NCBI RefSeq assembly: GCF_988242995.1
Contig: NZ_OZ547043.1
Direction: 5' to 3' (one strand)
DNA: 64,000 nt
How positions within the stretch are numbered: position 1 is the stretch's first letter; each line of letters begins with the position of its first letter. Below, one piece after another: positions 3,246-54,260 of this stretch. Position numbers and translations under genes: made by a program. Under the pieces are notes generated by a model that was given only the letters and a program-made list of their open reading frames with translations, searched no databases and had not been told where the DNA came from.

Positions 3246-3367
3246 GATTTCGTCCTTTTTAAGGTGATTATTTACACCTTAGCGCAAAGCGGACGTGGTT
3301 CCTACTGGAGTGCGCATAACGAACACAAGCACTTCCCGTGGATAAATTGAAAACGAAAGATCAAAAA

Positions 3368-3457
3368 AAAAGCCAGCACCCGGCTGGCTAAGTAATACTG
3401 GAAGCAATGTGAGCAATGTCGTGCTTTCAGGTTCTCCGCGAGGGTCTTCCTGATCGC
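3368..3457 (-). ncRNA. ryhB: RyhB iron-sparing small RNA
   Basis: Plus strand carries the reverse complement of the RyhB sequence (gcgagggtcttcctgatcgc ... aaaaagccagcacccggctggc) ending in a Rho-independent terminator hairpin plus U-run; located between yhhX and yhhY as in K-12; ends approximate. Confidence 0.85.
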
Positions 3458-11694: not shown

Positions 11695-12578
11695 TGGTAA
11701 CGCACCTTGCTTTCAACATAGCGGAACTGCACCACCGTCAGCACGATGACGAGGAACATCAACACCACCGACTGCGCGGCAGACGAAGCCAGATCCAGTC
11801 CGGTAAAGCCTTCGCGGTAGATCTTATAAATCAGCGTCGTGGTAGCCTGAACCGGCCCGCCGGACGTAGCGGCGTCGATCACCGGGAAGGTGTCGAAGAA
11901 GGCGTACACCAGGTTCACCACCAGCAGGAAGAAACTCACCGGAGCGATAAGCGGCAGAGCAATCTTAAAGAAGCGGCGAATCGGGCCTGCACCGTCGATG
12001 GCTGCGGCTTCGATCAACGAACGGGGAATGGATTGCAGCGCGGCATAGAAGAACAGAAAGTTGTAGCTAATTTGCTTCCACACCGAGGCAAACACCACCA
12101 GAAACATCGCCTGACCGCTGTTTTGCGCGTGGTTCCAGTCGTAGCCGAACTCAGCGAGAAAATGGGTGATCAGCCCGCGACCAGGGTTAAACAGGAAGAT
12201 CCACAATACGGCGGCAACGGCGGGTGCCACGGCGTAAGGCAGCAGCATTAAGGTTTGATAGAAACGGCTGCCGCGCACGATGTACTCCACCAGCGCCGCG
12301 AAGAACAGCGATACCAGCAAACCGCTGACGGTGACAAAGGTGCTGAATTTTATCGTCGTCCAGAAGGAGTCGAGATAATAGCTGTCATGAAACAGCGTGA
12401 CGAAGTTATCCAGGCCGACAAACTGGCTGGAGAAACCAAATGGATCGACGCTTTGCAGCGAGTACCACAACGCTTCGCCCGCAGGCCAGATAAAAAAGAT
12501 AACGGTGATGATGAGCTGCGGCGCGACCAGCAAATAGGGCAGCCAGCGCGAGCGGAACACCGGACGGGATGATGACAT
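11691..12578 (-). CDS. ugpA: sn-glycerol-3-phosphate ABC transporter permease
   Basis: 295 aa polytopic membrane protein; 4-bp overlap with ugpE. Confidence 0.95.
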
Positions 12579-12589
12579 AGTTAAACTCT

Positions 12590-12740
12590 TCGTGTTGTGT
12601 TCCCCTCACCCCGGCCCTCTCCCCAGAGGGGCGAGGGAGAAAGGCGGTGCATACTTTCCCACCGAGCGAAGTTGCAAACCGACACGGCACCTGGATACCA
12701 CGCCGATCGGTCCCCTCTCCCTTTGGGAGAGGGTTAGGGT
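12590..12740. repeat. GC-rich palindromic intergenic repeat (boxC-like), two inverted copies
   Basis: cccctcaccccggccctctcccc...ggggcgaggg and its inverted partner gggagagggttagggtgaggg seen directly; a related copy occurs at about 30420-30490. Confidence 0.65.
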
Positions 12741-12753
12741 GAGGGTAAGAGAA

Positions 12754-14070
12754 TTAAGACTTCGTAGACTGCTCAAAGCGGCGCAGTAACTGATTCCCAC
12801 GCTCAACGGCGGTATCCAGCGCCTGCTGTGGCGTCTTCTTACCGGTCCACACGCTCTCCAGCTCTTCATCCACAATCACGCGGATCTGCGGCATGTTGCC
12901 CAGACGCAGCCCTTTGGTGAACGGCAACGGCGGCTTATTCAGCATCTGACGCGTCGCGGTATCCGCCCCTGGGTTTTTCTCATAAAAACCCTGCTCACGG
13001 GTCAGGTCATACGCCGCTTTGGTGATTGGCAGATAACCAGTTTTCTGATGCCACTCGGCAGCGTTTTCTGGCTTCGCGAGGAAGTCGAGGAACTTCGCCA
13101 CACCCGTATAAGTTTCTTTATCTTTACCCTGCATTACCCACAAGCTGGCTCCGCCGATAATGGCGTTTTGTGGCGCATCTTTCGCATCGGCGTCGTAAGG
13201 CATCATGCCTACGCCGTAGTTAAATTTGGCGTACTCGCGAATGTTGGCGAGAGAACCGGAAGAGGCGGTGGTCATCGCGCAATCACCGTTATAGAACTTC
13301 TCAGTGGATTCATCCTTACGCCCGACGTAGCTGAAATCGCCCTTCTTGTTCATCTCTTCGAGCATAGCGATGTGTTTCACCTGCTCCGGCTTGTTGAACT
13401 CCAGCACCGCGTCTGTGCCGTCAAAGCCGTTGTTTTTGCTGGCAAACGGCAGACCGTTCCAGGCGCTAAAGTTTTCCAGTTGGATCCAGCCCTGCCAGCC
13501 GCTGGCGTAGCCGCACTTCATGCCGGAGGCTTTCAGTTTTGCGGCATAGTCCGCCAGATCCTGCCAGGTTTTCGGCGGCTGTTCCGGGTCTAAACCGGCT
13601 TTCTTGAAGGCGTCTTTGTTGTAATAGAGAACGGGAGTCGAGCTGTTGAACGGCTGGGAGAGTAAGTGGCCGGTTTTGCTGTCGGAGTAGTAGCCTGAAA
13701 CCGTCGGCACAAACTGCGACTCATCGAACTGAATCCCCGCCTCTTTAAACACGTCATATACCGGTTTAATGGCTTTCGACGCCATCATGGTGGCGGTGCC
13801 AACTTCATAAACCTGCAAAATAGCAGGCGCGTTGCCGGTACGAAATGCGGCAATCCCCGCGCTTAAATTCTGTTCGTAGTTGCCTTTATAGGTCGGTACA
13901 ATTTTGTAATCCGGGTTTTCGGCGTTAAAACGTTGGGCCAGAGAATCCACCTCTTTACCCAGTTCCCCTTCCATAGAATGCCAGAACGGAATGGTCGTCA
14001 CTGCCTGTGCATTCCCCATTAACGCCAGTCCGAGCGCCAGTGCTGAAGCTGTATAATGTAACGGTTTCAT
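12754..14070 (-). CDS. ugpB: sn-glycerol-3-phosphate ABC transporter periplasmic binding protein
   Basis: 438 aa with signal peptide ([23 protein letters not shown]); first gene of ugp operon. Confidence 0.95.
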
Positions 14071-14250: not shown

Positions 14251-14304
14251 ATAAGCGGGAAAAATAGAAGGTCTGAATCAAACTCTACAGATTGCTCATC
14301 GTTT

Positions 14305-14410
<106 letters not shown>

Positions 14411-14467
14411 TTACATTTGTCACCTGTCTCAAAGGAGTCTTTTGACTCCTTATCAATCAACGTGTTA

Positions 14468-18147: not shown

Positions 18148-18194
18148 AAGGTAACCTTTCTAAACCCGCCCGCATTTTACGGGCGGTGGGATGA

Positions 18195-19304
18195 TCACTT
18201 GGCTGCCGTGGATGAACCGTCGGCGTGCCACTGGAAGACACCAAAATCAAATCCCTTAAGATCGCCTTTTTCATCCCAGTTCAGCGGCCCAATCACGGTG
18301 TTTGCACCGTTAGCTTTTAAATCTTTCACCAGCGCCAGCGGCTCATCGCTGCCGGTACGCTCAAGGGCAGTCGCCAGAGATTGCACCGCCGCGTAGGTGA
18401 TCCAGACATAAGGCCCGGACGGATCTTTCTTGTCTGCTTTCAGCGCATCAACGATGCCTTTGTTTGCCGGATCCTGGTCATAGCGTTTTGGCATGGTGAC
18501 CAACATGCCTTCGGCAGCATCGCCAGCAATATTCGACAGCGACGCATTACCCACACCTTCCGGCCCCATAAATTGGGTTTTCAGGCCGACAGAACGGGCC
18601 TGGCGCAGCATCTGCCCCATTTCCGGGTAGTAACCGCCGTAGTAAACGAAGTCGATATTTTCTTTTTTCAGGCGGGCGATCAGCGCGGAGAAATCTTTCT
18701 CGCCAGCGGTGATGCCGTCGAAGAAGACGACGTTGGCGTTAGCCGCTTTCAGCCCGTCCTGCACCGAACGTGCCAGCCCTTCGCCATACTGTTGTTTGTC
18801 ATGAATGATGGCGATGCGCTGGGGCTTCACCGTCTCAAGAATGTATTTTGCCGCCGTTGGCCCCTGGGAAGAGTCCAGCCCGGCAGTACGCATGATGTAT
18901 TGATAACCGCGTTGGGTCAGCTCCGGGTTGGTCGCTCCCGGCGAGATCATCAGAATACCTTCGTCTTCGTAGATATCTGATGCAGGTTGGGTAGAGGAGG
19001 AACACAAGTGCCCAATAACGTATTTAATGCCGTCGTTAACGATTTTGTTGGCGACCGCAACGGCTTGTTTCGGGTCGCAGGCGTCGTCATATTCCACGCC
19101 AACCAGCTTATCGCCTTTAATTCCCCCTTTGGCATTAATGTCTTTAATCGCCTGACGCGCGCCGTTAAATTCCATATCGCCCCACTGGGCAATCGGGCCG
19201 GACATCGCGCCGACAACGGCGACTTTAATATCGTCAGCCATAGCGGTGTGTGAAATTGCCAGTGCAATCATCCCTGCGATGATAGGTTTCGCATTCCGTT
19301 TCAT
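18195..19304 (-). CDS. livK: leucine-specific periplasmic binding protein
   Basis: Start refined to [23 protein letters not shown] (signal peptide); 369 aa; close paralog of livJ at 20311-21414. Confidence 0.93.
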
Positions 19305-20111: not shown

Positions 20112-20152
20112 TCGTAAAGTTTGATTTCAAAAGTGATGACCAACGAGAAATT

Positions 20153-20252
<100 letters not shown>

Positions 20253-20310
20253 TGAAGCAACGTACTCGATATTAGCAATTTGGCGGCAACCCAAAGTTGC
20301 CGATTAATGA

Positions 20311-21414
20311 TTACTTCGCATCGGTCGCCGTGCCGTTGGCGTGCCAGTCAAATACGCCGAACTCAAAGCCTTTCAGATCGCCTTTCTCATCCCAGGTCAG
20401 CGGTCCCATCACGGTATCCACGGAGTTCGCTTTCAGGTATTTGGCGATTTCTGCCGGATCGTCAGACTGATTCAGGCCCGCCTGCAAAGATTGCAGCGCG
20501 GCGTAGGTGGTCCAAACGAATGCGCCGCTTGGGTCCTGTTTTTTCGCTTTGATCGCATCAACAATGGGTTTGTTCGCCGGAACCTGATCGTAGTTCTTCG
20601 GCTTGGTCACCAGCAGTCCTTCCGCTGATTCACCCGCAATGTTAGACAGCGAGACGTTAGCCACGCCTTCCGGCCCCATAAACTGAGTTTTCAGCCCTGC
20701 CGCGCGTGCCTGACGCAGGATTTGCCCCATTTCCGGGTGATAACCGCCGTAGTAAACGAAGTCGATATTCTCTTTTTTCAGACGCGCCACCAGCGTTGAG
20801 AAATCTTTTTCCCCAGCGGTGATACCATCAAAGAACACCACGTTAGCATTGCCTTTCTTCAGGCCGTCCTGCACCGCACGCGCCAGACCTTCGCCGTACT
20901 GCTGTTTGTCGTGGACGATAGCAATACGCTGCGGTTTCACTTTCTCAAGAATATATTTCGCCGCCGTCGGCCCCTGGTCGGAGTCCAGGCCGGTAGTGCG
21001 CAGGATCAGCTGATAGCCACGAGCGGTCAGCTCTGGCGCGGTTGCCGCTGGGGTGATCATTAAAATGCCTTCATCTTCATAGATGTCTGACGCTGGCTGC
21101 GTTGATGAAGAACAGAGGTGACCAATCACATATTTAATGCCGTCGTTAACGACTTTGTTCGCCACCGCAACCGCCTGTTTCGGGTCACAGGCATCGTCAT
21201 ATTTCACGATTTGCAGTTTGTTGCCTTTGATACCACCTTTAGCATTGATATCCGCAACCGCCTGCTCAGCACCAGTAAACTCCTGGTCACCGTACTGGGC
21301 CACCGGACCGGACATTGCGCCCACGACTGCAACTTTAATATCTTCTGCCAGAGCCATATTGCTGAATGCCAGCGCGATACATCCTGCCAGTAACGCTTTA
21401 CCCTTCATGTTCAT
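20311..21414 (-). CDS. livJ: Leu/Ile/Val periplasmic binding protein
   Basis: Start refined to [16 protein letters not shown] (signal peptide); 367 aa. Confidence 0.93.
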
Positions 21415-28210: not shown

Positions 28211-30409
28211 ATGTCGACTCCTGACAATCACGGCAAGAAAGCCCCTCAATTTGCTGCGTTCAAACCGCTAACCACGGTACAGAACGCCAACGACTGTTGC
28301 TGCGACGGCGCATGTTCCAGCACGCCAACGCTCTCTGAAAACGTCTCCGGCACCCGCTATAGCTGGAAAGTCAGCGGCATGGACTGCGCCGCCTGTGCGC
28401 GCAAGGTAGAAAATGCCGTGCGCCAGCTTGCAGGCGTGAATCAGGTGCAGGTGTTGTTCGCCACCGAAAAACTGGTGGTCGATGCCGACAATGACATCCG
28501 TGCCCAGGTTGAATCTGCGGTGCAAAAAGCGGGCTATTCCCTGCGCGATGAACAGGCCGCCGACGAACCGCAAACATCACGCCTGAAAGAGAATTTGCCG
28601 CTGATTACGCTAATCGTGATGATGGCAATCAGCTGGGGTCTGGAGCAGTTTAATCATCCGTTCGGGCAACTGGCGTTTATCGCGACCACGCTGGTTGGGC
28701 TGTACCCGATTGCTCGTCAGGCATTACGGCTGATCAAATCCGGCAGCTACTTCGCCATTGAAACGTTAATGAGCGTAGCCGCTATTGGTGCGCTGTTTAT
28801 TGGCGCAACGGCTGAAGCTGCGATGGTGTTGCTACTGTTTTTGATTGGTGAACGACTGGAAGGCTGGGCCGCCAGCCGCGCGCGTCAGGGCGTTAGCGCG
28901 TTAATGGCGCTGAAACCAGAAACCGCCACGCGCCTGCGTAACGGTGAGCGGGAAGAGGTGGCGATTAACAGCCTGCGCCCTGGCGATGTGATTGAAGTCG
29001 CCGCAGGTGGACGTTTGCCTGCCGACGGTAAACTGCTCTCACCGTTTGCCAGTTTTGATGAAAGCGCCCTGACCGGCGAATCCATTCCGGTGGAGCGCGC
29101 AACGGGCGATAAAGTCCCTGCTGGTGCCACCAGCGTAGACCGTCTGGTAACGCTGGAAGTGCTGTCAGAACCGGGTGCCAGCGCCATTGACCGGATTCTG
29201 AAACTGATCGAAGAAGCCGAAGAGCGTCGCGCACCCATTGAGCGGTTTATCGACCGTTTCAGCCGTATCTATACGCCCGCGATTATGGCCGTCGCTCTGC
29301 TGGTGACGCTGGTGCCACCGCTGCTGTTTGCCGCCAGCTGGCAGGAGTGGATTTATAAAGGCCTGACGCTGCTGCTGATTGGCTGCCCGTGCGCGTTAGT
29401 TATCTCCACGCCCGCGGCGATTACCTCCGGGCTGGCAGCAGCAGCGCGTCGTGGGGCGTTAATTAAAGGCGGAGCGGCGCTGGAACAACTGGGTCGTGTT
29501 ACCCAGGTGGCGTTTGATAAAACCGGTACGCTGACCGTCGGTAAACCGCGCGTTACCGCGATTCATCCGGCAACGGGTATTAGTGAATCTGAACTGCTGA
29601 CACTGGCAGCGGCGGTCGAGCAAGGCGCGACGCATCCACTGGCGCAAGCCATCGTACGCGAAGCACAGGTTGCTGAACTCGCTATTCCCACCGCCGAATC
29701 ACAGCGGGCGCTGGTCGGGTCTGGCATTGAAGCGCAGGTTAACGGTGAGCGCGTATTGATTTGCGCTGCAGGGAAACATCCCGCTGATGCATTTGCTGGT
29801 TTGATTAATGAACTGGAAAGCGCCGGGCAAACAGTAGTGCTGGTAGTACGTAACGATGACGTGCTGGGTATCATTGCATTGCAGGATACTCTGCGTGCCG
29901 ATGCTGCAACTGCCATCAGTGAACTGAACGCGCTGGGAGTTAAAGGAGTGATCCTCACCGGCGATAATCCACGCGCAGCGGCGGCAATCGCCGGGGAACT
30001 GGGGCTGGAGTTTAAAGCGGGCCTGTTGCCGGAAGATAAAGTCAAAGCAGTGACCGAGCTGAATCAACATGCGCCGCTGGCGATGGTCGGTGACGGTATT
30101 AACGACGCGCCAGCGATGAAAGCCGCCGCCATCGGGATTGCAATGGGCAGTGGCACAGACGTGGCGCTGGAAACCGCCGATGCAGCATTAACCCATAACC
30201 ACCTGCGCGGCCTGGTGCAAATGATTGAACTGGCACGCGCCACTCACGCCAATATCCGCCAGAACATCACTATTGCGCTGGGGCTGAAGGGCGTTTTCCT
30301 CGTCACGACGCTGTTAGGGATGACCGGACTGTGGCTGGCAGTGCTGGCAGATACCGGTGCGACGGTGCTGGTGACGGCGAATGCGTTAAGGCTGTTGCGC
30401 AGGAAATAA
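28211..30409 (+). CDS. zntA: Zn/Cd/Pb-exporting P1B-type ATPase
   Basis: 732 aa; N-terminal metal-binding GMDCAACARK, CPC motif (IGCPCALVIS), phosphorylation motif DKTGTLT, hinge GDGINDAPA. Confidence 0.97.
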   Translation: MSTPDNHGKKAPQFAAFKPLTTVQNANDCCCDGACSSTPTLSENVSGTRYSWKVSGMDCAACARKVENAVRQLAGVNQVQVLFATEKLVVDADNDIRAQVESAVQKAGYSLRDEQAADEPQTSRLKENLPLITLIVMMAISWGLEQFNHPFGQLAFIATTLVGLYPIARQALRLIKSGSYFAIETLMSVAAIGALFIGATAEAAMVLLLFLIGERLEGWAASRARQGVSALMALKPETATRLRNGEREEVAINSLRPGDVIEVAAGGRLPADGKLLSPFASFDESALTGESIPVERATGDKVPAGATSVDRLVTLEVLSEPGASAIDRILKLIEEAEERRAPIERFIDRFSRIYTPAIMAVALLVTLVPPLLFAASWQEWIYKGLTLLLIGCPCALVISTPAAITSGLAAAARRGALIKGGAALEQLGRVTQVAFDKTGTLTVGKPRVTAIHPATGISESELLTLAAAVEQGATHPLAQAIVREAQVAELAIPTAESQRALVGSGIEAQVNGERVLICAAGKHPADAFAGLINELESAGQTVVLVVRNDDVLGIIALQDTLRADAATAISELNALGVKGVILTGDNPRAAAAIAGELGLEFKAGLLPEDKVKAVTELNQHAPLAMVGDGINDAPAMKAAAIGIAMGSGTDVALETADAALTHNHLRGLVQMIELARATHANIRQNITIALGLKGVFLVTTLLGMTGLWLAVLADTGATVLVTANALRLLRRK

Positions 30410-30419
30410 GGCAAACCGA

Positions 30420-30490
30420 TCGCAACATTGAGCGCGATCGGTCCCCTCGCTCCTCTGGGGAGAGGGTTAGGGTGAGGGGAAAAGGCGGCA
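30420..30490. repeat. GC-rich palindromic intergenic repeat (boxC-like)
   Basis: cgatcggtcccctcgctcctctggggagagggttagggtgagggg closely resembles 12690-12740. Confidence 0.65.
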
Positions 30491-30510
30491 TCGAAGCCAA
30501 TCAGCCCCCA

Positions 30511-30756
30511 TCAACCGCCTTTGCGAATCAAATAACGATAAGGCAGTCCATCCGTCTCTTTAGCAACCAGTTCGTGTTCCATAAAGGTACAAAACCCAGG
30601 AATATCGCGGGTAGTGGCCGGATCGTCGGCGATAATCAGCAACGTTTCGCCAGGCTGCATATTGCGCACGGTTTTGCGCACCATCATCACCGGTTCCGGG
30701 CAGCGCAGGCCAAGCGCGTCGAGTGTGTGGTCAGGGCTGGAAAAGAGATCGGTCAT
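30511..30756 (-). CDS. tusA: sulfurtransferase for tRNA 2-thiouridine synthesis
   Basis: 81 aa; CPxP motif ([17 protein letters not shown]); matches remembered TusA. Confidence 0.95.
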
Positions 30757-30976
30757 TTTCTTCTCATCACTTAAAAAAACGGCGCTAGTTTACGCCCTGT
30801 GAGTCCGTAAGCAAACCAGGTTAACGATTGCGTAAAAATTAACCATTGCATTGTCAACGTAAAGCAGTATCATGCGGCGGCTCGAAAAAAGGGTAAGCAC
30901 GTTATTATGTTAAGGTAACAGACGTGTCGTACGTATTGGGTTCCCTCACCCCAATGGCTAATCAAAAAGGTACAAT

Positions 30977-31642
30977 ATGAACGTTGTCTCGCAAACTCAA
31001 CGCTATAAGGCGTTGTTCTGGTTATCGTTATTTCATCTGCTGGTGATCACCTCCAGTAACTATCTGGTTCAGCTTCCGGTCTCCATTTTTGGTTTCCATA
31101 CCACCTGGGGCGCATTTAGCTTTCCGTTTATTTTCCTTGCTACCGACCTGACCGTGCGTATTTTTGGCGCACCGCTGGCCCGTCGTATCATCTTTGCGGT
31201 GATGATCCCGGCGTTGCTGATCTCCTACGTCATCTCGTCGCTGTTCTATATGGGTTCCTGGCAGGGATTCGGCGCGCTCGCCCACTTCAATCTGTTTGTC
31301 GCCCGTATCGCCACCGCCAGTTTCATGGCCTACGCGCTGGGCCAGATCCTCGACGTGCACGTTTTTAACCGCCTGCGTCAGAGTCGCCGCTGGTGGCTGG
31401 CACCAACAGCTTCCACCCTGTTTGGGAACGTCAGCGACACGCTGGCCTTCTTCTTCATTGCCTTCTGGCACAGCCCCGATGCCTTTATGGCTGAACACTG
31501 GATGGAAATCGCGCTGGTCGATTACTGTTTCAAAGTGTTAATCAGTATCGTTTTCTTCCTGCCAATGTATGGCGTATTACTCAATATGCTGTTGAAAAGA
31601 CTGGCAGATAAATCTGAAATCAACGCTTTGCAGGCGAGTTAA
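30977..31642 (+). CDS. yhhQ: queuosine precursor transporter
   Basis: 221 aa polytopic membrane protein; matches remembered YhhQ. Confidence 0.9.
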   Translation: MNVVSQTQRYKALFWLSLFHLLVITSSNYLVQLPVSIFGFHTTWGAFSFPFIFLATDLTVRIFGAPLARRIIFAVMIPALLISYVISSLFYMGSWQGFGALAHFNLFVARIATASFMAYALGQILDVHVFNRLRQSRRWWLAPTASTLFGNVSDTLAFFFIAFWHSPDAFMAEHWMEIALVDYCFKVLISIVFFLPMYGVLLNMLLKRLADKSEINALQAS

Positions 31643-52029: not shown

Positions 52030-52745
52030 CCAGGGTTAATTTGGCAATAAATATCCTCCGGCATAGCCGGAGGTTTTTCAAATGCGCCTATAAGGCTCTC
52101 TTACCAGCCGCGCCCTAACAGGCGCACACGATCTGACATTTGCATCCAACTTCGTTACTTACGGCCCGTAAACGGGCTGCCCGGATAGGGAATCGATAAC
52201 TGCTCTCCCATTTTATCCTCTTCAAGCTGGTGCTTTATGTAATCCTGTATCTTCGCCGTGTTCTTACCCACTGTATCGACGTAGTACCCTCTGCACCAGA
52301 ACTCCCTGTTCCTGTATTTGAATTTCAAATCACCAAACTGCTCGTAAAGCATCAGACTGCTTTTCCCTTTCAGATATCCCATAAAGCCGGATACGCTCAT
52401 TTTGGGCGGGATCTCCACAAGCATATGGATATAATCTGCACAGCATTCAGCTTCCAGAATCCGTACGCTTTTCCACTCACACAGCTTTCTCAAAATACTG
52501 CCTATTGCTCTACGCTTCTCTCTGTAGAACACCTGTCTTCGGTATTTTGGCGCAAAAACTATGTGATATTTACAGTTCCATCGGGTGTGCGCTAAGCTCT
52601 TTTCGTTCCCCATTGGGACCCCCTTTTGATTTCTTGTTTGACACTTGCAGTTGCCAGACCGCAAAGTGTTTTAACAAATCAAAAGGGGTTTTAATAACTG
52701 GCTCAAAGCTGAAAGCTTTCCGGAACCCCCAGCCTAGCTGGGGGT
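52030..52745 (-). mobile_element. IS200-like insertion sequence (IS200/IS605 family, tnpA only); boundaries approximate
   Basis: About 0.7 kb element containing a Y1/HUH transposase gene, with a perfect GC-rich hairpin (aacccccagc cta gctgggggtt) at the tnpA-upstream end as in IS200 left ends; absent from the K-12 arrangement. Confidence 0.7.
52155..52613 (-). CDS. tnpA: IS200/IS605-family Y1 (HUH) transposase TnpA
   Basis: 152 aa from MGNEKSLAHTRWNCKYHIVFAPKYRR; HUH-type motif (YIHMLV) and catalytic Tyr region; start refined from ORF 52155-52664. Confidence 0.85.
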   Translation of the reverse strand: MGNEKSLAHTRWNCKYHIVFAPKYRRQVFYREKRRAIGSILRKLCEWKSVRILEAECCADYIHMLVEIPPKMSVSGFMGYLKGKSSLMLYEQFGDLKFKYRNREFWCRGYYVDTVGKNTAKIQDYIKHQLEEDKMGEQLSIPYPGSPFTGRK

Positions 52746-54260
52746 TTTCTGTGCACAATTATGCATGCTGAACATTCTTCCAGCATGTTTACTGTCACGG
52801 GCGTTAAGACCTAAAACTGTCCCCGTTTCACCTATGCGTTCTCTTCCACCATTACCGTTATGTGCAACAACTTGATTTATACCTAACATTTGTGAGCATG
52901 CTAATAGTTCTTCAAGTTTCGGTCTGTAATCTGTCGAAACAGAAAAATAACGATTAAAGGATCGACAAGAGATAGCCCGGCTAGTTTTAAACTTTTTACC
53001 ATTAATGATGGCATGATGCTTCTTATTAATAATTGCCGCTAATTCGACCGGATCGAGAGCATTGGTCATTTCATCAATAGAGACTGTTATCGGTCCTATA
53101 ATGTAACGTTTTCGCTGATCATCAAAAGTTATCCCATGATGATTTGCCATTATTTTGTATTTGGGGTCATAGAAACATACAGGATAATCTTTTATCCCAG
53201 CGTAGGTATCCTCATCAAGTGGTTTCATACGCGTGAAGTTCTGCATATAGTTACCATTGCAATTCGTTTCATGATTACCAGCTAATACATGAACATTTTT
53301 ATTAATACTCATTATGCGTTTTAACAAATCGATGATAAATTGATCGCCACAGATATTACTAAATCGATCGCCGGTTTGGTCACCCAGAAACGTACATGGC
53401 GTCACTGCGCCCTGATTAATAACTAAATATGGCTGAAGACTTTCTAAAACCACATCTCTTCTGTTCAGAATACTGATTATTGTATTAACATTAATGTCTA
53501 GTTCCTCATTAATTTTTTCCCTTAATAAAACGTTGAGAACTTCATCTTCTATATTAAGCAACTGGCTAAGAAAATTTACTTCTTCAGCCATAATTCCCAA
53601 ATGTCCCGTTGCGAAAAGCGCGTACAAAACTGCACCGACTGAGCCATCGGTATCACCAAAATAGGTTGGTCTGGTACTTGTGGGATCAACGGGTGAACAA
53701 TTGGAGAAATAGATTCTGTCAGCGAACTGGGGTTTTATAATTGTTTCGAATTTAATATCAGATACATTGTATTGCGATATTTTCCAGTTCCAGATGGGTT
53801 TGTACGACTCAGTAACTGCAACATCATTAGCATTATCATTTACTGTCATATTATTAAGTAAATAAACAATGCTGCACCAATTAATATCGGTATCATCAAG
53901 AGGGCAACCGTAATTTTTACTATTAATTGTCACAATAAACTGATAACTATTATTCCTACGTAGAATATGGGCACGCATGCCCGATAGCATACTATATTTT
54001 TCTGAATGATTCGTTTCTATGGTAAATGAAATTTTGTCATCTTGAAAAGATTGTTGGAAACGTTCTATTTGCCAATCATCAATTTTTTCCACAACTTCAC
54101 CGAGCATTGTCCTGGCAATACTTGATATATCATCACCTATACCATTTGCAATATACCCAAACAGTTCTTTAGTGAAGTTAGTAACATGCTCTTGCACCAT
54201 ATCATTTGTTGCGATAGTCGTTATACTGTCGTTAGTACCTGCCACAGTTCCAATTTTCAT
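52734..54260 (-). CDS. yhiJ: DUF4049-type protein with C-terminal PPP-like metallophosphoesterase motifs; 3' end abuts or is altered by the IS200 end
   Basis: 508 aa; motifs GDTDG, GDQTGDRF, LAGNHE in PPP order; SD GAGGT upstream; paralog of the next gene; AT-rich. Confidence 0.8.
   Translation of the reverse strand: MKIGTVAGTNDSITTIATNDMVQEHVTNFTKELFGYIANGIGDDISSIARTMLGEVVEKIDDWQIERFQQSFQDDKISFTIETNHSEKYSMLSGMRAHILRRNNSYQFIVTINSKNYGCPLDDTDINWCSIVYLLNNMTVNDNANDVAVTESYKPIWNWKISQYNVSDIKFETIIKPQFADRIYFSNCSPVDPTSTRPTYFGDTDGSVGAVLYALFATGHLGIMAEEVNFLSQLLNIEDEVLNVLLREKINEELDINVNTIISILNRRDVVLESLQPYLVINQGAVTPCTFLGDQTGDRFSNICGDQFIIDLLKRIMSINKNVHVLAGNHETNCNGNYMQNFTRMKPLDEDTYAGIKDYPVCFYDPKYKIMANHHGITFDDQRKRYIIGPITVSIDEMTNALDPVELAAIINKKHHAIINGKKFKTSRAISCRSFNRYFSVSTDYRPKLEELLACSQMLGINQVVAHNGNGGRERIGETGTVLGLNARDSKHAGRMFSMHNCAQKTPS

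Follow-up and report, generated by a model that had tools for sequence, protein, structure and literature searches.

Repeats of the kind considered here have entered the Escherichia coli literature under several names. BoxC is traced by later papers (PMC4666352, PMC2267715) to Bergler et al. 1992 and Bachellier et al. 1999, and the name PIT goes back to Hoyne et al. 2000. Holder et al. 2015 (PMC4666352) equated their TMECO elements with the earlier BoxC and the later PIT, citing for BoxC the study of Bergler et al. 1992 on envM (fabI); TMECO no. 9 indeed adjoins fabI (envM), the gene of the paper cited. The names HPG1 and HPG2 come from Kaplan et al. 2016 (PMC5100583). BoxC was also recovered as a known E. 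coli family by Cozzuto et al. 2008 (PMC2267715), who found 22 copies and quoted 32 copies of 56 bp from the literature; the published length of HPG1 is 63 nt. The strict pattern with which Holder et al. searched for TMECO elements is CCCTCNCCC N3-6 GGGNGAGGG N3 GGGNGAGGG, and Supplementary Table S8 of their study is a catalogue of 62 conserved loci across 56 strains. Our literature search found no functional work on TMECO or PIT later than 2016. BoxC is not mentioned by Delihas 2011, and a paper on HusR/YnfL proved to be a false lead, the term 'boxC' being absent from its main text.

Here we describe a copy of this repeat located between zntA and tusA in a stretch of 64,000 nt of E. coli DNA (the window). 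The repeat is the already catalogued BoxC, one element under the four names BoxC, PIT, TMECO and HPG1, and both the element and this exact locus are known from two published catalogues. In our view, it is very probably a resident, vertically inherited BoxC that is not itself an intrinsic terminator, but a structured repeat of a selfish or neutral kind. The assignment of the window to E. coli is illustrated by a 1.1-kb query around BoxC, which matched 5412 of 5426 complete genomes over at least 80% of its length, with a best identity of 98.5%; the annotated features beneath this match (megablast, annotated E. coli genomes) are zntA, tusA and yhhQ. The open reading frames and these gene names bear out the preliminary description in placing the element between convergent zntA (+) and tusA (-), which share a spacer of 101 bp. 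It should be noted that the zntA-tusA-yhhQ stretch (window 29900-31000) is at most 98.5% identical to any of the 5426 complete E. coli genomes, whereas the ugp spacer stretch (window 12480-12860) is 100% identical to strain 1190; as judged from the sequences, this contrast suggests a mosaic or locally divergent zntA allele.

The zntA-tusA element belongs to a true dispersed repeat family. The string originally quoted for it, ggtcccctcgctcctctggggagagggttagggtgagggg, lies at window 30440-30479 and had been regarded as a close relative of a copy at 12690-12740. This relationship holds, the two having in common an exact 21-mer, GGGAGAGGGTTAGGGTGAGGG, and a 13-mer of 5' flank, GATCGGTCCCCTC; in a pairwise alignment they are 83% identical over 40 ungapped nt, with a 2-nt indel in the C-block. 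The similarity between copies stops some 20 nt upstream and some 14 nt downstream of the core, which is the full extent of a short repeat rather than a chance GC-rich run. The preliminary description was also right that there is one dispersed family, but the window holds three copies and not two, and all three are intergenic. A genome-wide count with a 61-nt query gave a median of 18 and a maximum of 34 places per genome, in 5425 of the 5426 complete E. coli genomes, 92,116 places being on chromosomes versus 69 on plasmids. The idea that two GC-rich runs resemble each other by chance, without forming a family, is favoured only by their short length (about 40 nt). It is opposed by the exact 21-mer and the common flank, by the median of 18 places per genome and by the fact that the family is in print. 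Moreover, a search of the window for the 21-mer with up to three mismatches gave three occurrences where shuffles predict 0.01, and none of 100 shuffles reached three. The shuffle test and the genome-wide count rule this idea out, and we give it virtually no credence.

The identity of the element follows from its position in K-12. TMECO no. 16, CCCTCGCCCCTCTGGGGAGAGGGTTAGGGTGAGGGG, is listed at K-12 3,608,684-3,608,719 on the plus strand as type A with one mismatched triplet ('type A mm') (PMC4666352 Table 1), and on examining K-12 3,606,000-3,611,000 we found this sequence between zntA and tusA at exactly that position. The same site is HPG1 no. 40, a G-quadruplex motif whose midpoint, 3608708, is 48 nt away from zntA and, on the opposite side, 32 nt away from tusA (Kaplan et al. 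2016, PMC5100583 Table 1). The core in the window is identical to K-12 3,608,684-3,608,719 at 35 of 36 positions and lies in the same zntA-tusA spacer, and is thus its orthologue. The K-12 RefSeq annotation has no repeat feature within this spacer. The K-12 orthologue fits the strict TMECO pattern, whereas the window copy fails it by one base (CCCTCGCTC), so that a strict TMECO regular expression finds only the two ugp copies in the window. In the terms of Holder et al. the zntA-tusA copy is hence a 'mutated TMECO', although the pattern serves for searching and does not define members by descent. The T at 30451 turns a C-G pair between the C-block and G-block 1 into T-G (U-G in RNA), and a 61-mer carrying it has matches of at least 99% identity in 2704 E. 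coli records.

The element consists of one C-block followed by two near-identical G-blocks (Table 1). Two tandem GGGNGAGGG G-blocks spaced by N3 match exactly at 30458-30478, and according to folding the C-block is able to pair with either G-block. To define the flanks we aligned 17 BoxC copies, from 14 K-12 loci and the three window copies, which yielded a consensus of roughly tCAAnAnnGnGCaCnnaCgGT (ending ...GnGCaCnnaCgGT), then the core, then AAcAGnCnnGCAC. Conservation in this alignment is weak and reaches about 20 nt upstream and 14 nt downstream of the core, and the zntA-tusA copy agrees with both the 5' and the 3' flank consensus. The resulting extent is near the 30420-30490 first proposed and occupies most of the spacer, which means that any transcript crossing the spacer contains BoxC. 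A reading of the element as a MITE was considered and rejected as unlikely: no consistent target-site duplication was present at the ends of the 17 aligned copies, and the core-less allele of strain THO-008 offers no clean empty site. To our knowledge, neither an enzyme that mobilises BoxC nor a protein that binds it has been described, whereas for REP both binding proteins and a RAYT transposase are known.

Table 1. Features of the zntA-tusA spacer and of related BoxC loci (window coordinates unless a locus is named)
Feature	Position	Strand	Remarks
zntA	28211-30409	+	732-aa ORF; named by megablast to annotated E. coli genomes
zntA stop codon TAA	30407-30409	+	34 nt ahead of BoxC core
Hairpin H1	30415-30442	both	ACCGATCGC, 10-nt loop, GCGATCGGT
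Whole repeat with weakly conserved flanks	~30422-30492	+	5' flank gcaacattgagcgcgatcggt, 3' flank aaaaggcggcatc
BoxC core, type A, TTA loop, 36 nt	30444-30479	+	CCCTCGCTCC-TCT-GGGGAGAGGG-TTA-GGGTGAGGGG
C-block CCCTCGCTCC	30444-30453	+	
C-to-T polymorphism in C-block	30451	+	CCCTCGCTCC here versus CCCTCGCCCC in K-12
Loop TCT	30454-30456	+	
G-block 1 GGGGAGAGGG	30457-30466	+	
Loop TTA	30467-30469	+	
G-block 2 GGGTGAGGGG	30470-30479	+	
Hairpin H3	30481-30522	both	AAAGGCGG, 26-nt spacer, CCGCCTTT
tusA	30511-30756	-	81-aa ORF; named by megablast to annotated E. coli genomes
tusA stop codon	30511-30513	-	BoxC core 31 nt away
Second BoxC copy, type A, perfect C-block CCCTCTCCC	12713-12745 (~12705-12745)	+	Adjoins ugpB stop codon; copy cited in the preliminary description
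Third BoxC copy, type B, CCG loop instead of TTA	12603-12637	-	Inverted relative to 12713-12745; overlooked in the preliminary description
Cross-species tusA loci with BoxC, E. albertii included	L035:3250-3345, L010:3255-3300, L014:3245-3290, L007:3250-3345		

On either strand, the zntA-tusA spacer is predicted to fold as three hairpins, which are H1, BoxC and H3. The preliminary description held that the repeat is probably acting as a transcript-end structure, and a terminator role has been raised as speculation by Kaplan et al. (PMC5100583). The supposition that the BoxC hairpin terminates transcription of zntA, tusA or both has several points in its favour: a strong predicted RNA hairpin in both orientations (-22.8 kcal/mol on the zntA strand (+) and -15.0 kcal/mol on the tusA strand (-)), a location 34 nt past the zntA stop codon and 31 nt past that of tusA, and the convergent arrangement of 7 of the 19 BoxC-bearing K-12 spacers (counted from the table in PMC5100583). 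As a terminator, however, the element finds no support in its own sequence. What comes next 3' of the BoxC hairpin is AAGGCGGCAUCG (zntA strand) or ACCGAUCGCGCU (tusA strand). A U-tract is thus present on neither, and a terminator scan made no call on BoxC, the sole terminator-like call inside the spacer being H1 (30413-30444, minus strand). In addition, BoxC copies occur inside operons, between pstA and pstB in K-12 and between ugpB and ugpA in the window, where termination would deprive the cell of essential cistrons further downstream whose expression is needed, which argues against such a role. The TMECO family shows no strand bias (Holder et al. 2015, PMC4666352), and the functional study of PIT elements by Hoyne and Maher 2002 reported neither promoter nor terminator activity, as relayed by Holder et al. 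2015 (PMC4666352). The Term-seq tables of Adams et al. 2021 contain no 3' end in the K-12 spacer (3,608,6xx-7xx) under three growth conditions, in which expression of zntA and tusA was possibly low, and neither gene is listed in the TERMITe supplements. We therefore consider it improbable that BoxC is a terminator, bearing in mind that the Term-seq negative may stem from low zntA and tusA expression, and that the PIT reporter result is taken from the summary given by Holder et al. (PMC4666352).

As judged from predicted folds, the other two hairpins would be better terminator candidates than BoxC, each of them borrowing one arm from a BoxC flank. The right arm of H1 is the BoxC 5' flank, and on the minus (tusA) strand it continues with GCCTTATTTC; the predicted RNA energies are -14.8 kcal/mol (plus) and -17.6 kcal/mol (minus). 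H3 has the BoxC 3' flank as its left arm and the last tusA codons (K-G-G) as its right arm, is followed on the tusA strand by UUUUCCCC, and has predicted RNA energies of -21.6 kcal/mol (minus) and -11.3 kcal/mol (plus). Among candidate intrinsic terminators of tusA H3 ranks first, and it is also a weak candidate for a bidirectional one; it is missing in E. albertii and Pseudocitrobacter. A search of the entire window with Rfam at the gathering threshold matched no family at the zntA-tusA or the ugp BoxC locus. Its only matches lay elsewhere, namely RyhB (window 3364-3428 (-), 83 bits) and the Hfq-binding sRNA STnc490 (window 52623-52746 (-), 145 bits).

Transcription of the tusA strand seems to extend beyond the spacer. 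Adams et al. 2021 reported a bicyclomycin-sensitive Rho termination region at K-12 3,607,955 (-), antisense to zntA, with a Rho score of 2.93 (p = 2.8e-5). This position corresponds to about window 29715 (-), and suggests tusA-strand transcription through the spacer, possibly as read-through from tusA, which is a further point against termination at BoxC. Minus-strand transcription would then continue into antisense zntA, where Rho would act. One might go further and suppose that BoxC itself is a Rho-utilisation site, in which the C-rich strand of the element, UUUUCCCCUCACCCUAACCCUCUCCCC, loads Rho when present in the tusA transcript and so ends tusA transcription inside antisense zntA. The tusA-sense RNA does have a C-rich, G-poor run, and the Rho termination region lies about 0.7 kb downstream of it. 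Yet the run is just about 27 nt long and is partly base-paired in the predicted fold, the antisense transcript could start within zntA instead, and copies of the family occur in both orientations (PMC4666352). We regard a Rho-loading role of this kind as very unlikely.

A different possibility is that BoxC acts at the level of DNA. The HPG1 G-quadruplex motif (G3+ N1-7 x3, G3+; sequence GGGAGAGGGTTAGGGTGAGGG) is matched by regular expression at 30457-30479, and, on either strand of the 64 kb, canonical G-quadruplex motifs (four runs of 3 or more G, loops of 1-7 nt) occur in the three BoxC copies and nowhere else. In the best RNA fold of the zntA-sense strand the C-block is paired mainly with G-block 2. 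For the G-rich strand as single-stranded DNA, a G-quadruplex is predicted at -12.6 kcal/mol versus -9.5 kcal/mol for the hairpin (DNA parameters, G-quadruplex allowed), a slight preference that agrees with the switch between G-quadruplex and hairpin for which Kaplan et al. 2016 (PMC5100583) presented CD support. Holder et al. (PMC4666352) found by CD and NMR that the G-rich strand of consensus TMECO oligonucleotides forms an intrastrand purine-motif triplex in vitro, and they observed a polymerase stop in primer extension and surroundings of TMECO loci that are more variable than controls. Single-stranded BoxC is predicted to fold as RNA into a strong hairpin in either orientation. The G-rich strand as DNA may take the form of a hairpin or a G-quadruplex, or of an intrastrand triplex of the purine-motif type. 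It is conceivable that the G-rich strand transiently becomes a triplex or G-quadruplex during replication or transcription, so that polymerases stall and the locus is unstable, any effect on convergent transcription being a by-product. Besides the published structural data and the restriction of G-quadruplex motifs to the BoxC copies, this view may be supported by at least four structural variants at the zntA-tusA locus that delete parts of the G-blocks. Against it, TMECO was not protected in DMS footprinting in vivo, and in vitro the presence of the complementary strand shifts the balance to the duplex (PMC4666352); furthermore, variability around repeats can also be produced by recombination between copies. 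On balance a DNA-level role is a possibility that we entertain tentatively, while considering it less likely than its absence. A link between Pb2+, G-quadruplexes and ZntA was also considered and given negligible weight, as the same repeat adjoins unrelated genes in about 19 K-12 spacers (counted from the table in PMC5100583).

The two other copies of the window lie in the ugpA-ugpB spacer (12579-12753, 175 bp), where a type B (-) and a type A (+) element are arranged as an inverted pair; the inverted pairs of K-12 likewise combine type A with type B (PMC4666352). In ugp-sense RNA the two are predicted to pair with each other, which gives a single extended stem-loop with a folding energy of -84.4 kcal/mol (z = -4.1). 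The K-12 spacer is only 97 bp long and has a REP in place of the BoxC pair, with no TMECO listed there (PMC4666352 Table 1). The two spacers differ throughout, the ugpA ribosome-binding region included. Whereas the BoxC-pair allele is found in only 317 of the 5426 complete E. coli genomes (at least 80% coverage of the window version), most E. coli, K-12 among them, have a REP at the ugpB-ugpA junction. BoxC and REP are thus allelic alternatives between the genes of a binding protein (ugpB) and a permease (ugpA). The zntA-tusA copy itself has no REP consensus, and its identification as a REP was rejected; true REPs were seen in the K-12 ugp spacer, in UTI89 and at window 14303-14422. The last of these belongs to an inverted repeat of 120 nt (window 14303-14422 and 20137-20256, 86% complementary) which, on reading the sequence, represents ordinary REP/BIME clusters (GCCGGATGCGGCGTAAACGCCTTATCCGGCCTAC...); an ERIC identity was dropped after a search with ERIC primers gave no match. 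The window also contains two direct repeats of 136 nt and 300 nt (18191-18663 and 20307-20773, spacing 2110-2116 bp, identity 73-76%), which are probably paralogous coding sequences.

Classically, REP is credited with stabilising the mRNA upstream of it where binding-protein and permease genes adjoin. Newbury and colleagues are said to have found in 1987 that REP does so at the malE-malF and hisJ-hisQ junctions. BoxC might, by analogy, be a REP-like mRNA stabiliser whose hairpin blocks 3'-to-5' exonucleases, and so would set the mature 3' end and the half-life of the zntA mRNA and, at the other locus, of the ugpB mRNA. The stable predicted stem-loop would suit such a barrier, as would the fold of the inverted pair at the very position where K-12 and most E. 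coli have a REP. On the other hand, the K-12 Term-seq lists (Adams et al. 2021) have no processed 3' end at BoxC, and the exchange at ugp takes in the whole spacer with the ugpA ribosome-binding region, so that it may be a matter of plain recombination with no functional equivalence. We hold a barrier function to be possible, though unlikely.

Variation at the zntA-tusA locus is among the points that favour a resident repeat. A 121-nt query of the spacer is covered to at least 80% in 5032 of the 5426 genomes. In UTI89 (L006:3473-3740) a REP is inserted between zntA and BoxC, giving a spacer of 268 bp; strain PBP5 (L005) has lost 8 bp of G-block 2; and in THO-008 (L097:704-1258) the core is absent and the ACCGATCGCGCTCAAT flank is kept, with REPs and an unannotated 102-aa ORF ahead of zntA. 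Sequence matching the small-ORF region of THO-008 is present in 1029 genomes, and a Pfam search with the small ORF that lies between tusA and zntA in some strains returned no match. The spacer is hence a small and highly polymorphic hotspot in which BoxC has been kept, eroded, joined by REP or lost, and this variation matches the instability around TMECO sites reported by Holder et al. (PMC4666352). We also observed that, in a divergent genome recorded as E. coli (L008:3244-4040), the 3' end of tusA and the spacer are replaced by about 0.8 kb with small hydrophobic ORFs.

The history of the tusA-side copy extends beyond E. coli. In a search for strict BoxC in 80 tusA loci of other species (485 kb), only three matches were obtained, each of them directly 3' of tusA and in the same orientation: one in a Pseudocitrobacter MAG (type A, with homologous flanks) and one each in Enterobacter sichuanensis and E. 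asburiae (type B). The tusA-side copy is present in E. albertii as well, where 14 nt have been lost from its interior. Sequence and position indicate that the tusA-side copy is orthologous in Pseudocitrobacter and Enterobacter. Between Pseudocitrobacter and K-12 the core is identical at 36 of 36 positions and the third-codon positions of tusA at 73%, a difference with P ~1e-5 under neutral divergence. The presence of the copy across genera, together with the identity of the core, implies that it is old. From these comparisons, the core would seem to have been kept either by selection or by gene conversion and concerted evolution among the copies.

BoxC with its flanks fills most of the spacer shared by the 3' ends of zntA and tusA, and we favour a scenario in which it is a selfish or neutral element that is tolerated between cistrons and in 3' UTRs. 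A stable stem-loop in the 3' UTR and local instability of the sequence would be its side effects. The data show what the element is, its orthology and copy number, how it is predicted to fold, that no U-tract follows it and that the locus is polymorphic; that BoxC lacks a dedicated function is what we infer from them. Two observations sit uneasily with a neutral or selfish repeat: the core is far better conserved than neutral sites, and the BoxC pair at ugpB-ugpA occupies the exact place of the K-12 REP, which hints at a useful role in common. That the tusA-side BoxC keeps its place in Escherichia, in Pseudocitrobacter and in two Enterobacter species, with a core identical between K-12 and Pseudocitrobacter in spite of 73% identity at silent sites of tusA, could be taken to mean that it is kept by selection. 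It might then manage the convergent transcription of zntA and tusA, either by switching between hairpin and G-quadruplex or by loading Rho. The exchange of BoxC for REP at ugp would then reflect a post-transcriptional role shared by the BoxC and REP families. We see a slim chance that this is so. With a resident, selfish or neutral BoxC as the preferred reading, the zntA-tusA element is best annotated as BoxC rather than as a terminator. Since the element and its locus are known, the modest added value of this work is comparative, and consists of the spacer hotspot, the BoxC and REP alleles at ugpB-ugpA, and conservation of the core across genera far above neutral. The zntA-tusA and ugp loci provide a concrete place for testing selection on BoxC versus homogenisation by gene conversion.

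The element can finally be compared with three known systems. Like an intrinsic terminator it is a GC-rich stem-loop that closely follows a stop codon and lies where two genes converge. It differs in that neither orientation has a U-tract, that the K-12 Term-seq tables give no 3' end here and that the published reporter tests, as summarised by Holder et al., showed no activity. With BoxC/PIT/TMECO/HPG1 it shares the architecture, the type A TTA loop, the intergenic habit and the range of copy numbers, the C-to-T change at 30451 being the difference of the window copy. The ugp pair obeys the published rule for inverted pairs, and is absent from K-12 and hence from both K-12 tables (PMC4666352 Table 1, PMC5100583 Table 1). 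Like BoxC, REP/BIME (PU) elements are intergenic repeats that are short, palindromic and rich in GC, and they occur both between cistrons and in 3' UTRs. Although their sequence (GCCGGATG...CATCCGGC) is unrelated to that of BoxC, the two families meet at both loci, REP being the allelic alternative to BoxC at ugpB-ugpA and its neighbour between zntA and tusA in UTI89.
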